A stretch of DNA of 64,000 bases. It comes from Eledone cirrhosa. Its lineage: Eukaryota. The notes below the pieces were generated by a model, which saw only the letters and a list, made by a program, of their open reading frames with translations, did not search any database and was not told where the DNA came from. Below, one piece after another: positions 1-44,190 of the stretch. Location: the NCBI GenBank assembly GCA_964016885.1, contig OZ024742.1, positions 290,160,001-290,224,000 of the forward strand, given 5' to 3'. How positions within the stretch are numbered: the first letter of the stretch is position 1; each line of letters opens with the position of its first letter. Position numbers and translations under genes: made by a program.

Positions 1-1958
1 ACATGGTTCAATCCTCCCCACAACGCCGAGGTGACAACTCCTATCGGGAAAATCTTCTTTAGGCTCATTGAAAAACACTTCCCACTACAACACCGCTACC
101 ACAACATAATTAACAAAAATACCATCAAACTCTCCAACAGCACCACACCAAACTTTGCACAAAACATCGTCTCCTCTAACAACAAAAAAACTCAACCCCT
201 ATGGAAGAAATAACCTAAATAGCAGTGGAGAGCCGACCAGGAGGTGCAACTGTCCTGATGGATCCATTTGCCCCCTCGACAACAGATGCAGAGATCGTAA
301 TGTGATCTACCAGTGCAACGTGAGGACGGACACCTCCAACAAAGCTTATATAGGATTAACCGCATGTGACTTCAAGACCCGGCTATACCAACACAGACAT
401 ACCTTCCGAAACCCGTCCCGGCGTCACGCCACTACACTTTCGGGCCACATATGGACCTCAAGGATAACAATATTACCTATGATCTCACTTGGAGCTTACT
501 GTCCAGAGCCAACTCTTACACGGGAGGACGCCGTCCGTGCAATTTATGCTCGGAGGAAACTTTACAAATGCTGTTTTCGACGGACCGACTCCTAAACAAG
601 AAAGATGAACTGGTAACTGCATGTAAACACAGATTGCGTAGGCCTTACCTCGCCCTCAAACCCCATAATGACCCGGGGGGGGGGGGTAGACTAGGGCTAT
701 AACACCCCACTTGCCGATTTTGTAATGGGTAACCCCTGCTTGCAAAGGTAGACGTAAGATCTTCTTTTATATCTTTTTATCACTTCCTCTATATTTCCTT
801 CTTCCCCCCCCATCCCTCCCTAGTCCTTCCACCCCAGTCCTCTTTCTTTGTCGTCGTCCTTTTCACTTTCTCGCCCACCCGAGGCAGCCCCTCGGTCCTC
901 TGTAGCCTCAGTCCCCCACCCCCTTCCCCTATTCTATGATAGAATTGGCCGACTCCGCTTTTTATAGCAGATGTGTTAGACCCTGGATACTTGCCTTCTT
1001 ATCCGATGGCTGCCCCTTTTCCTTGCTTTCTATATTTCTTAGTGGTATCTTTGCTTTAATTTCTCGTATATCAGTATTTAAATTTTTGGGGGTGGGGGGT
1101 GGGGGGGATTCTGAATTAATTTTCCGTATCAAATTTTTCATATACTTCGTACGAGCATTTATATTTATGTAGTTTGCACTAGAATTTTTGTATCATGGCG
1201 GCACCCTTAGAGATAGTATTAGTATTCTTTTTCGGGATTCTGAATTATTATTTCATATTAGTTTGTTTTTTTTGCACTGGATGGTTGCTGGCCTTGTGTC
1301 TGGGGTAGAAACCTTTATTTCGTACTGGTCTCGGGACTCTGAATTATTATTTTGTGGTAGTTTCTTTAGTATTTTGGCCCCCCACTTGTTGACCCGTCAC
1401 CGTAAGATATACTCGGTTGATTACTTATACCACTTAAAAGGGTCTCATTATAATTCCGTACCACCTAGTAAACCTTTCTTTAGTCTAGCAGTACCAGTGA
1501 ACGACTTGATAGCTGTCCTTAGGTTATAGTAACCAGAAATTGTTTTTTTTTTACATTTAATTGTTTTTTAACATTCTCGGTTTTTTTCTATATATTTACC
1601 TCATATTGTTTTACTTATTGTTTCAACTGCCTACCCCTCCCCTTCCCTAGTATACTTCTTTGACCTCCTGCCCAGCTGTAGCTGGCACTATCAACGCACG
1701 ACTGGGTTTCCTCCACCCCCTCTCCCTCTTTCTTCTACTGGCAGGTTCAGCTACCCCTTCCCTCCACAAATTGCCATGATAGAATTATGTGTCTCAACAA
1801 CAAACTTTTGACCAATCCTTGTGACAATCACTTTTACCATATATTGAATTACCCCCTGAGAAGCCCGGCTATTCATATGCCAGGATAAAAATTTTCATTT
1901 AGTCCAGAATTAGCCATCGAAACGGCTTGAGCTCAGCCGTCGGGGTCCTACTCGTTCC
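1..1958 (+). mobile_element. Penelope-like element family A, copy 1: ORF 3' end (frameshifted) plus 3' UTR/pseudo-LTR, running into (TA)n
   Basis: ORF pieces 31-702 carry RCNCPDGSICPL (CxCx5C), VIYQC..AYIGLT (GIY-YIG) and CNLC..CKH. The region aligns with the minus-strand copy at 30867-33000 and has an HHR at 1851-1946. Confidence 0.9.
1851..1946 (+). ncRNA. Type I hammerhead ribozyme motif, family A (core mutated to CUGAGAA)
   Basis: ACCCC-CTGAGAA-[..CGGCTA..TAGCC..]-GAAA-CGGCT TGAGCTC AGCCG-TC-GGGGT. The sister copies have TTGAGAA. Confidence 0.75.
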
Positions 1959-2696
1959 TATATACATATATATATTTACATATATATATATACATATATA
2001 TATATACATATATATATACATTTATATATATATACATATATATATATATACATATATATATATATATACATATATATATACATATACATTTATATATATA
2101 CATATATATATATATACATATATATATATATATACATATATATATATACATATATATATATATACATATATATATATATACATATATATATATATACATA
2201 TATATATATATACATATATATATACATATATATATATATACATATATATATACATACATATATATATATACATATATATATATACATACATATATATATA
2301 TACATATATATATATATACATATATATATATATATATATACATATATATATACATATATACATATATATATATATATATACATATATATATACATATATA
2401 TATATATTTATATATATACATATATATATACATATATATATATACATATATACATATATACATATATATATACATATATATATATACATATATATATACA
2501 TATATATATACATATATATATATAGATATATACATATATACATATATATATACATATATATACATATATATACATATATATATATATACATATATATACA
2601 TACATATATATATATATATACATATATATATATATATACATATATATATATATATACATATATATATATATATATATACATATATATATATATGTA
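1959..2696. repeat. Interrupted (TA)n microsatellite (CA interruptions on +)
   Basis: Seen directly in the sequence. Confidence 0.98.
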
Positions 2697-2881
2697 GATA
2701 AATCTACCAAGAGTTTACGGTAGTGTCCAATCCGTATGAAGAACTCAATGTATTCCGGATATCATGGAAAGAAGAGATGTAATGAAAATCCACTTTCGGT
2801 GAAAGATAAACGGTATACAGAGTCAAGATAAAATATTAAACAAATAATGAATAAACAATTCCTTATATTAAACAAAAAAAG

Positions 2882-3036
2882 TTCATTATTTAACGATCGT
2901 TTCTAGGGTATATATGTGTTATAATTGGTATGCATATTCAACAGATCTATGTACAAAATTATACAAAATTATACAAATTATCAAGATTAAATATACATAC
3001 CTAACACATATATACGCCGTCTTCAGAAATAATGAA
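2882..3036 (-). ncRNA. Hammerhead motif, family B (minus copy)
   Basis: Reverse complement of 5411-5565. Confidence 0.75.
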
Positions 3037-41408: not shown

Positions 41409-42045
41409 GCAAAGTTTTATTTAAATTGTTGGGTTACAACGAGTAAATATTTATAACTGATATAAAAGCACTCAACAAGTATTTGGAGTATATTTACGAT
41501 ATTAAATAAATGGAAACTATATTTATAAAACCATATTTATTTCATTATATATATTTCAGTGATATCATATTAAAAATATGGTATGCCTTCATCAGACAAA
41601 ATACAATATAAACAGTCTTATAAATAGATAGATTTGACATACCTTACAACTTCAACTTCCATTTAAAAAGTTGATTTGGTAGTGAAAAATGTTAGGGACA
41701 GTTATAAAAAAAGAAAGAAAGAAAGAAAGAAAGCGAAGAAAAAGAAGAAATGTATCTCTCTATATCTATCTCTCTCTGTTTTTCGTTGCATGCATTTCTT
41801 CTTTTTCTTCGCATTCTTTCTTTCTTTCTTTTTTTATAACTGTCCCTAACATTTTTCACTACCAAATCAGCTTTTTAAATGGAAGTTGAAGTTGTAAGGT
41901 ATGTCAAATCTATCTATTTATAAGACTGTTTATATTGTATTTTGTCTGATGAAGGCATACCATATTTTTAATATGATATCCCTGAAATATATATAATGAA
42001 ATAAATATGGTTTTATAAATATAGTTTCCATTTATTTAATATCGT
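41409..42045. mobile_element. Short fold-back of the PLE family G pLTR (no ORF)
   Basis: 41409-41740 is homologous to the reverse complement of ~18960-19320. ~41785-42045 is the inverted arm. HHRs (CUGAUGA) at 41538-41603 (-) and 41938-42003 (+). Confidence 0.88.
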
Positions 42046-42748
42046 ATGTATATATATATATATATATATATATATATATATATATATATATATATATATG
42101 TATATATATATGTATGTATATATATATATGTATGTATATATATATATGTATGTATATATATATATGTATATATATATATATGTATATATATATATGTATG
42201 TATATATATATATGTATATATATATATATATGTATATATATATATGTATGTATATATATATATGTATATATGTATGTATATATATATATATATATATATG
42301 TATATATATATATGTATATATATATATATGTATATATATATATATGTATATATGTATGTATATATATATATATATATATATATGTATATATATATATGTA
42401 TATATGTATATATATATATATGTATATATATATATGTATATATGTATATATATATATATGTATATATATATATATATGTATATATATATATGTATATATG
42501 TATATATATATATATGTATATATATGTATATATATGTATATATATATATGTATATATATGTATATATATATATGTATATATATATATATATATGTATATA
42601 TATATATGTATATATATGTATATATATATATATATATATATATATGTATATATATATATATATATGTATATATATGTATATATATATATATATATATGTA
42701 TATATATATATATATATATATATATGTATATATATATATATATATATA

Positions 42749-44190
42749 AAAGACTTAAAATAAGAAAATATTTTTTTAAAATTTTTTAAAAAATTTTTTT
42801 ACTTACTTACTTAAATTTTCACTCCAACTAATTAGTTTCTGCAATGGGATAAAGACAGTTACATAATCCAACTGTCGAGAATTCATTGCGTCATCAGGGA
42901 GTCTATTCTCAGCTGAGCCTCCAGGCAATGCGCGGACACTAGCGGCTCATATAAAAATAATAATTCGGTAGAAAGAACAGCTAGGCGAGGACTGGATTCT
43001 ATGTACTGAAATTCTCACTGCTTCCAGTCAAATGTCCGATTCTAAAGAATCAATCACGTGACATAGAGGCTAGTTAGAAGGAATGGGATGGTAAGATGAC
43101 TGACGCCTACTAACACCCCAAAAAAAATTTTGAAGTGGTTTTGGCAGGTTTGCTCGACAAATCAGTGATTTGGAGATAAATATAGATAATTTAATATATC
43201 AACTAACATAGGCGCACAGATGCACGTCCATGCCAGCAAATACACAGGTTATGTCATAGTACCTAGGTGGTTCAATGCAGGAGGGTGCAGAACAATAATA
43301 TAAAAGACGTAAAATAAGAAAATATTTTTTTAAAATTTTTTAAAAAATTTTTTTACTTACTTAAATTTTCACTCCAACTAATTAGTTTCTGCAATGGGAT
43401 AAAGACAGTTACATAATCCAACTGTCGAGAATTCATTGCGTCATCAGGGAGTCTATTCTCAGCTGAGCCTCCAGGCAATGCGCGGACACTAGCGGCTCAT
43501 ATAAAAATACTTTTATATTATTGTTCTGCACCCTCCTGCATTGAACCACCTAGGTACTATGACATAACCTGTGTATTTGCTGGCATGGACGTGCATCTGT
43601 GCGCCTATGTTAGTTGATATATTAAATTATCTATATTTATCTCCAAATCACTGATTTGTCGAGCAAACCTGCCAAAACCACTTCAAAATTTTTTTTGGGG
43701 TGTTAGTAGGCGTCAGTCATCTTACCATCCCATTCCTTCTAACTAGCCTCTATGTCACGTGATTGATTCTTTAGAATCGGACATTTGACTGGAAGCAGTG
43801 AGAATTTCAGTACATAGAATCCAGTCCTCGCCTAGCTGTTCTTTCTACCGAATTATTATTTTTATATGAGCCGCTAGTGTCCGCGCATTGCCTGGAGGCT
43901 CAGCTGAGAATAGACTCCCTGATGACGCAATGAATTCTCGACAGTTGGATTATGTAACTGTCTTTATCCCATTGCAGAAACTAATTAGTTGGAGTGAAAA
44001 TTTAAGTAAGTAAGTAAAAAAATTTTTTTAAAAATTTTTTTAAAATATTTTCTTATTTTACGTCTTTTATATTATTGTTCTGCACCCTCCTGCATTGAAC
44101 CACCTAGGTACTATGACATAACCTGTGTATTTGCTGGCATGGACGTGCATCTGTGCGCCTATGTTAGTTGATATATTAAATTATCTATAT
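42749..44190. mobile_element. Tandem-plus-inverted HHR element, family L (~550-bp unit)
   Basis: Minus: unit 42749-43302 plus partial 43303-43509. Plus: unit 43510-44063 plus partial 44064-44190. Three HHRs. Confidence 0.88.
43914..43995 (+). ncRNA. Hammerhead motif, family L (minus copies 42821-42902 and 43371-43452)
   Basis: ACTCC-CTGATGA-C GCAATG..GACAGTT..AACTGTC..CATTGC A-GAAA-CTAATTAG-TT-GGAGT. Confidence 0.85.

Follow-up and report, generated by a model that had tools for sequence, protein, structure and literature searches.

Nested Penelope-like elements and putative passenger retrozymes with hammerhead motifs in a (TA)n tract of the Eledone cirrhosa genome

Penelope-like elements (PLEs) of the Hydra clade, as described by Craig et al. 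(2021; PMC8557442), encode a reverse transcriptase (RT) with a C-terminal GIY-YIG endonuclease, a CxCx5C linker, a DKT motif and an RWK-like motif; they target (TA)n, carry canonical hammerhead ribozymes in their pseudo-long terminal repeats (pseudo-LTRs), and occur as partial tandems with an inverted 5' arm and a tail at one end. The listing of this clade includes an octopus member (Craig et al., 2021). Animal non-LTR retrozymes (Cervera and de la Pena, 2020, PMC7229834; Li, Clavereau and Pollet, 2026, bioRxiv 10.64898/2026.07.22.740005) are dispersed arrays of tandem units of low GC content that lack an open reading frame (ORF), each with one type I hammerhead and a stable predicted circular fold. 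PLEs were called 'a strong candidate' for their helper in 2020 (PMC7229834), a proposal that the 2026 preprint extends with co-occurrence data and a tree. For PLEs themselves, Frangieh et al. (2024; PMC11167929) attributed the tail, which they call unique to PLEs, to an RT that starts at two sites inside the RNA, and observed in vitro that both target strands are cut and extended; the two start sites are mapped in that article, whose text gives no general signal for them. Here, we analyse a stretch of 64,000 nt from the 3.0-Gb genome assembly of Eledone cirrhosa (contig OZ024742.1; hereafter the window), in which bases 1-44,450 consist of islands alternating with TA tracts, and in which the islands are rich in type I hammerhead motifs.

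We consider it quite probable that the window represents a series of insertions nested in (TA)n, comprising eight autonomous PLE families (A, B, D, E, G, H, J, and K), of which mostly the 3' ends without the 5' part are present, together with four tandem ribozyme repeats lacking an ORF (C, F, I, and L) that were likely copied in trans by a Penelope RT-endonuclease, for C, I, and L likely by enzymes of the Hydra clade. Mobilisation in trans is something we infer, with better support than the letters of the window alone would provide. The element classes are already known, and the families described here are hence new members of them; the insertion footprint on the retrozymes and a bulged hairpin in the tail appear to add to the published accounts compared here.

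Twenty-four type I hammerhead copies belonging to 12 families were found between the TA tracts (three each in A and L, two each in B, E, H, I, and K, one each in C, D, F, and J, and four in G). This bears out a first-pass annotation made from the letters of the window, which had reported twelve such families in about 22 copies. The motifs of A, B, C, F, G, I, J, K, and L were picked up directly by a type I hammerhead descriptor, while those of D, E, and H, an inverted copy of G (at ~15.6 kb) and an inverted copy of K were recognised by eye. The required parts, namely three helices arranged as in type I, both core boxes and the cleavage triplet, were seen across the families, with a stem I of just 3 bp in E and a mismatched stem III in H. 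When 14 family islands and four control islands were each subjected to 200 dinucleotide shuffles, the observed score was reached by none of the shuffles in 10 of the 14 family islands, by 1/200 in H and by 11/200 in E; E and H are the weaker calls. The window copy of D scored 0 because of a one-base deletion in stem III, and the intact form is common in the genome (20 of 28 matches). The edge island of family A (1500-1958) scored 0 in this test and 10 in the motif listing, apparently because the test slice ended too near the motif. Three of the four control islands scored 0; the fourth (40300-41214) scored 8 (3/200 shuffles). Damage is visible in several window copies: the A copy at 1851 has a C3-A8 mismatch, and the D, inverted G and inverted K copies have a single defect each. 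The further claim that every island up to 38.8 kb without a long interspersed element (LINE) contains the core holds if the small pieces within the low-complexity stretch of B are counted as B.

In their traits these motifs agree with the hammerheads of PLE pseudo-LTRs described by Cervera and De la Pena (2014; PMC4209133), as the first-pass annotation had proposed: they share the short palindromic stem III, the extra base after A9 and the U3-A8 covariation, and they occur mostly as single truncated copies, with opposite-strand pairs 100-700 bp apart. The U4C cores of D and E and the very long stem II of B (~115 nt) are not met in the accessible text of that article. Genomic copies have family-stable cores, with U3-A8 in A and C and U4C in D and E, and a stem III that is palindromic in most families; the majority of these traits are on record for PLE hammerheads (PMC4209133; supplement S2 of PMC8557442). 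Hammerhead variants of this kind are reportedly treated by Lunse et al. in 2016, and the U4C and long-stem-II forms may be in print. Among the 150 of 386 Rfam matches that were listed, which were dominated by microRNA-model matches on TA repeats, the only hammerhead match was that of F to HH9 (34.9 bits versus a gathering score of 52), so that no listed hammerhead match attained the gathering score.

Two of the families, A and G, had been credited with RT-endonuclease ORFs of the Hydra clade, and both the ORFs and the Hydra motifs are present. Family A is represented by a near-complete PLE on the minus strand (30866..35950) with its pseudo-LTR at 34420-34843, its main ORF at 32163-34118 and the N-terminal part in another frame, hammerheads of the U3-A8 type at 30962-31055 and 34509-34602, and hairpins at ~34465-34488 and ~34389-34410; its inverted arm (34855-35950) reaches into an assembly gap. 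A second subfamily is present as the 3' part of a Hydra-clade PLE, comprising the endonuclease end and the 3' untranslated region (UTR), at 1..1958 (+; hammerhead 1851-1946). Family G forms a two-armed insertion (15592..19319) with an ORF remnant (16704-17771, +), a hairpin at ~19239-19258 and hammerheads at ~15633-15697 (-, with a one-base deletion) and 19125-19190 (+). A G-related subfamily provides another two-armed insertion (41413..42048) with hammerheads at 41538-41603 (-) and 41938-42003 (+).

The remaining ten families had been taken as non-coding. The genome was searched with each of these ten islands, yielding 797-2,827 candidates each, of which about 40 were scored and 20-25 loci kept, and chosen loci were extended upstream. 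Six of the ten (B, D, E, H, J, and K) reach an RT-endonuclease ORF of their own at other loci, while C, F, I, and L do not; the split is therefore eight autonomous and four non-autonomous families rather than two and ten. The picture of twelve mobile non-coding RNAs thus mostly gives way to ordinary truncated PLEs, as the annotation had itself allowed for some of its islands. Own ORFs were reached in two of two extended loci for B, three of four for E, four of four for H, three of three for K and, with respect to the endonuclease part, two of two for D. The B island of the window (2694..5616; long end left, short end right, hammerheads at 2882-3036 on the minus and 5411-5565 on the plus strand, tail hairpin at ~2743-2823 on the minus strand) corresponds to the 3' UTR of an 830-amino-acid (aa) Hydra ORF known from other loci, where same-strand copies lie 6,613 bp apart. 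Families D (11947..12627, +; hammerhead ~12378-12423 with a U4C core and the one-base deletion, hairpin ~12470-12503) and K (38425..38835, two-armed; hammerheads ~38455-38525 on the minus strand with the first stem I pair broken, and ~38641-38711 on the plus strand, hairpin ~38756-38780) are Hydra PLE 3' ends situated about 1 kb behind Hydra-type endonuclease domains, with a same-strand endonuclease upstream at 7/25 D loci and 4/25 K loci. Families E (12891..13342; minimal hammerheads at ~13053-13087, -, and ~13191-13225, +, with the U4C core and 3-bp stem I) and H (19830..20914; hammerheads ~20056-20100, -, and ~20704-20748, +, with the stop codon of its PLE at the island start) are two-armed insertions of PLE 3' ends that follow almost directly after ORFs of 730-940 aa. 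Family J (37292..37885, +; hammerhead 37752-37802, hairpin ~37823-37843) is a Hydra PLE 3' end after a TG/TA low-complexity UTR. At 25 loci and in 20 further, longer extensions J was not linked to any ORF, and a non-autonomous status that this had suggested was overturned by a search that reads through the long end: its long-end pattern has 320 genome matches, and of the first 30 by position four enter an ORF and a fifth enters the 5' UTR. One locus (L377) holds a whole element, with a pseudo-LTR, an ORF that contains a single frameshift, the low-complexity UTR and J. In the window, an assembly gap of 200 N (35952-36151) cuts into A's inverted arm as well as into the low-complexity sequence upstream of J.

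The proteins of A, B, D, G, J, and K have an RT followed by a C-terminal GIY-YIG domain, the CxCx5C linker and flanking CxxC and CxH motifs. A DKT motif is present in A, B, and J, and an RWR (RWK-like) motif in B, J and the N-terminal frame of A; the pieces of D, G, and K stop short of this region. The cysteine pair of CCHH-type endonucleases was not found in these six families and is present only in E and H, in which a Hydra-type CxCx5C linker without this pair was not found; H instead has a Neptune-like linker. Protein identities are 31-49% among the six and ~23% to E and H. All six show insertion in (TA)n, a pseudo-LTR, an inverted arm and a tail. Assigned by these protein motifs, A, B, D, G, J, and K are Hydra-clade PLEs, while E and H are CCHH-type PLEs outside the Hydra clade; of the Neptune, Nematis and Poseidon types, whose motifs are given by Craig et al. 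(2021), H is Neptune-like by motif. Pfam recognised no family in the ORFs of A, B, G, K, and J, and gave one weak GIY-YIG match for D. Unlike the Hydra PLEs of Craig et al. (2021), at least six families coexist in this genome, the tails measure 40-165 nt rather than 30-40 nt, and long low-complexity 3' UTRs are present in B and J.

The other four families consist of units of 593 nt (C), 485 nt (I), 553-555 nt (L) and ~467 nt including a TA spacer (F), which form head-to-tail arrays of up to ~16 units at many loci. Each tandem unit carries a type I hammerhead, and the longest ORFs measure 27-78 aa. In the window, C is present as ~1.4 units and a short inverted arm (10113..10988, -; hammerhead 10344-10433 with U3-A8, hairpins ~10205-10262 and ~10676-10690), F as a partial unit (14066..14518, -; canonical hammerhead 14228-14270), I as two units (26079..27046, +; hammerheads 26292-26370 and 26777-26855, hairpins ~26463-26493, ~26567-26584 and ~26948-26978) and L as a two-armed insertion (42749..44187; hammerheads 42821-42902 and 43371-43452 on the minus and 43914-43995 on the plus strand, hairpins ~43153-43175, -, and ~44077-44100, +). 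Reading through the long end of C gave 3,682 exact matches, and the first 30 by position (~18 insertions) all stay within the unit. In all of 126 neighbouring pairs of a PLE ORF hit and a hit of C, F, I, or L, a TA break separates the two. An L relative of 70% identity is likewise an ORF-less tandem unit, in which both hairpins are conserved and the hammerhead is maintained through compensatory changes. The predicted circular folds of C, I, and L are stable (z -4.3 to -6.8; 25 shuffles). By this organisation, C, F, I, and L are non-LTR retrozymes and share the traits listed above for those of animals, the proposal of PLEs as helpers included (PMC7229834; 10.64898/2026.07.22.740005). With lengths of 467-593 nt, their units exceed the 170-400 nt given by Cervera and de la Pena (2020) and fall within the 51-972 nt range of the 2026 preprint. 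Circular retrozyme RNA was demonstrated in these studies; the units reported here were observed in genomic DNA. The F units contain their own TA spacer, i.e., the element brings its own target; the spacer varies between 72 and 126 nt in one array and is a constant 42 nt in another (L344, L345).

The footprint left by the insertions connects the two groups. In each family, two 3' ends recur at fixed positions past the cleavage site, ~40-165 nt apart and both joined to TA; (TA)n is the insertion target, as the first-pass annotation had it. Two-armed insertions, consisting of an inverted left arm and a main arm, combine one short with one long end in 100 of 100 cases (A 10, B 4, C 19, D 6, E 6, G 2, H 10, I 11, J 4, K 19, L 9), to which C, I, and L contribute 39; the same is true of the eight two-armed insertions in the window. 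In this count, duplicates were dropped only if the inner sequence was identical, insertions with missing or mutated ends were left out, and 30 extra C loci were not included. Read against the descriptions by Craig et al. (2021) of a tail at one end and an inverted arm, and by Frangieh et al. (2024) of its two RT starts, the pair of fixed ends is the PLE tail. Neither the main text of Cervera and de la Pena (2020), where the word 'inverted' is absent, nor that of the 2026 preprint, where 'tail' is absent, describes such an arm or tail for retrozyme insertions. The anole Poseidon element PAc studied by Frangieh et al. (2024) resembles the elements reported here in its two fixed 3' ends around the tail, its AT-rich targets and the structured RNA near its starts; it differs in that it belongs to another clade, in that its starts lie inside the ORF within one AC-rich stem-loop, and in that no non-autonomous template was used.

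A second shared feature is a hairpin in the tail, formed by a closing helix of 3-5 pairs, a two-base bulge on the 3' side and a variable inner helix. It follows the short end in the Hydra families (A 9/10, B 6/6, D 16/18, G 2/3, J 26/28, K 30/35) and in three of the retrozymes (C 28/28, I 16/17, L 36/36), while E (1/15), H (1/20), and F (0/27) remain at background (5-11% in shuffles). The hairpin is repeated past the long end in C (28/29), I (10/10), L (16/16), A (1/1), and K (1/1). The closing pairs vary compensatorily between families; loop lengths differ, so that the hairpins could not be aligned with MAFFT. At the BLASTN level, where one low-complexity match was obtained, C, F, I, J, and L agree with the claim that the islands have only the core in common; the claim fails at the level of structure, where C, I, J, and L share this hairpin. 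The hairpin recurs in three further Hydra families of the genome outside the set from which it was defined. By eye, it is perfect in three of six published Hydra consensus sequences (Hydra-2_Amil, Hydra-1_Ajap, in which it occurs twice, and Hydra-2_Ajap) and imperfect in Hydra-1_Amil and Hydra-1_Crog; Hydra-1_Obim was not assessable. The main text of Craig et al. (2021) makes no mention of a hairpin, stem-loop or bulge, and no description of a tail or hairpin on retrozymes or Hydra elements was found in open-access text, although figures, the supplements of Li et al. (2026) or Repbase notes could hold one.

Since C, I, and L share the hairpin after their short and long ends with the Hydra families, they are likely passengers copied by a Hydra-clade PLE enzyme. 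Under the mechanism that we propose, the PLE endonuclease would cut both strands within (TA)n, and each cut strand would serve as the primer for reverse transcription from one of two positions within the RNA, which would yield two arms and a tail. The hairpins would be the protein-binding marks that set these two start sites in the Hydra clade; C, I, and L would keep the marks and ride along with Hydra PLEs, and F would ride with some PLE. Each insertion would supply new TA-flanked ends that draw the next one. The hammerheads, nearly all of which have a short palindromic stem III, are predicted to require dimer formation or the help of a protein for cutting; they would trim multimers to unit length and possibly allow circles. 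We give about even credence to the more specific proposal that the hairpin, usually in two copies, is a Hydra-clade recognition signal, from corals to sea cucumbers to this animal, that fixes the two RT starts, and that C, I, and L keep it together with the hammerhead as a minimal passport with which to hijack the enzyme as small circular RNAs. The genome offers enzymes together with their natural templates, a short candidate signal in which changes are compensatory, and negative controls of its own in E, H, and F, so that footprint and hairpin make both the helper of the retrozymes and the start-site signal of PLEs directly testable.

Several points weigh against this account. F stands outside the two-arm count, where its TA spacer makes end calls ambiguous (the array L345 fits the pattern); it does not have the Hydra hairpin and is not tied to a Hydra-clade helper, and just before its long end it has a strong plain hairpin. 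The second hairpin misses the descriptor in B, D, and G (0/1 each), where it is seen with a looser rule or by eye, and J does not have it. The descriptor was drawn from these very sequences and loosened twice, with respect to the bulge letters and the inner helix, so that the shuffle rates flatter it. J looked ORF-less until a better-aimed search was made, which was repeated for C alone, and F, I, or L may have a rare coding parent. Higher-order periods of two, three or four units occur in some arrays (L327, L332, L335, L336, L338), partly on one arm, which points to local amplification after insertion. The anole PLE inserted in vitro without a need for cleavage by its hammerhead, and the cleavage site was neither the start nor the end of any read (Frangieh et al., 2024); eight of nine Xenopus retrozyme dimers failed to cleave, and published tests of many such hammerhead motifs found low or no activity.

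The best-surviving alternative retains a PLE as helper and assigns the hairpins to other work, such as folding or shielding of the hammerhead or translational control upstream of the ORF start, rather than to start sites or enzyme specificity. In the autonomous families the second hairpin does lie ~30-85 nt before the start codon, and J without a second hairpin, like E, H, and F without any, nonetheless has two ends. We regard this explanation as unlikely, though one to be reckoned with: the ORF-less C, I, and L keep both hairpins, each ~7-17 nt past the anchor at an end, despite tails that range over ~60-165 nt among the hairpin-bearing families.

Distinctly less probable is a scenario discussed by Li et al. 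(2026), in which C, F, I, and L would be pseudo-LTRs of undetected autonomous PLEs that were multiplied locally as satellites by unequal exchange. The case of J illustrates that a coding parent can be missed among the top-scoring copies, and the higher-order repeats within arrays speak for local amplification. The arrays, however, occur dispersed on many contigs, and every array has a short and a long end of its own that are joined to TA; sequence read beyond the long end re-enters the unit; and the 70% relative of L is ORF-less as well. Array-private variants are, moreover, often present on both arms, and divergence is lower within than between arrays (I 0.0019 versus 0.0100, or 0.002 versus 0.010 in round figures; F 0.007 versus 0.019; C, with two arrays, 0.006 versus 0.008; L 0.009 within an array, 0.016 between arms and 0.019 between arrays). 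These array variants would be compatible with a circular template in our preferred reading of copying in trans by a PLE enzyme, in which the template may be either a circle or a linear multimer. The higher-order periods may reflect either multimeric templates or later duplication.

Copying of the retrozymes by a LINE RT of the CR1/L2 or RTE type, both represented in the window, seems very improbable. LINE ORFs do adjoin retrozymes, and LINEs were listed alongside PLEs as candidates (Cervera and de la Pena, 2020); the footprint of two fixed ends and an inverted arm is, however, stated by Craig et al. (2021) not to occur in non-LTR target-primed reverse transcription, and the tail hairpin is common to C, I, L and the Hydra PLEs, a comparison outside which the window LINEs stand.

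The tract had also been viewed as an especially dense reservoir of ribozymes. In a genome sample of 38 stretches of 10 kb at round coordinates, in which large contigs are over-sampled, the same descriptor found 43 hammerhead motifs, i.e., 1.13 per 10 kb (bootstrap 0.7-1.6), compared with 0, 0 and 2 in block shuffles. A TA tract lies at most 400 nt downstream of 32 of 41 sampled motifs, versus ~24% of random positions. With the strict descriptor, the window has 17 motifs in 44.45 kb (3.8 per 10 kb), which is 3.4 times the sample; its TA content of 0.28 is 5.9 times that of the sample (0.048), and the window is therefore not richer per unit of target. That two autonomous PLEs would mobilise ten short non-coding ribozyme RNAs in trans in a specialised reservoir is hardly credible: four families are ORF-less with a PLE footprint and the window does exceed the sampled density, yet an ORF of their own was reached for six of the ten, which already refutes the idea for these, and relative to its TA content the window is no denser in motifs than other parts of the genome sampled. 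Extrapolation to 3 Gb gives roughly 2-5 x 10^5 hammerhead motifs, far above the published figures for coral (>6,000), Xenopus (~9,000) and axolotl (up to 120,000 retrozymes), though the descriptors differ. Within 1.17 Mb of locus flanks (L001-L285), 311 unique hammerhead matches fall into ~58 clusters; some of the many further families in these flanks are related to F, I, and L, with identities of 70-88% or lower.

A thirteenth family, absent from the first-pass annotation, is present at 39782-39892 and 40300-40440. It is a very common repeat that precedes a Hydra ORF start at other loci (L043, L367), where a type I hammerhead with a U4A core was recognised by eye; the window copy is without the first core box. 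Two 5'-truncated LINE copies (21036-23039 and 27129-29004; RVT_1) that are 99% identical and share the same 3' end have TA tracts on both sides, and may represent a TA-targeting LINE that shares the PLE niche. Between TA tracts at 23718-25290 lies an intron-less, frameshifted piece related to the E3 ligase SHPRH (Pfam PF21325, E 2e-33; PF21324, E 6e-10), which is fused to a LINE 3' end and is probably a retrocopy chimera. A degenerate TA repeat of ~4.5 kb with one-sided C content (5617-10112) contains an apparent repeated block of ~1.85 kb that may have arisen by slippage, by duplication or as an assembly artefact. Outside the nest, at 44450-64000, the strict descriptor detected no hammerhead; this part contains decayed pieces of RTE-type LINEs and a broken Ty3/Gypsy-like LTR element whose LTR-like repeats (58110-58591 and 63464-63944) are 92% identical.

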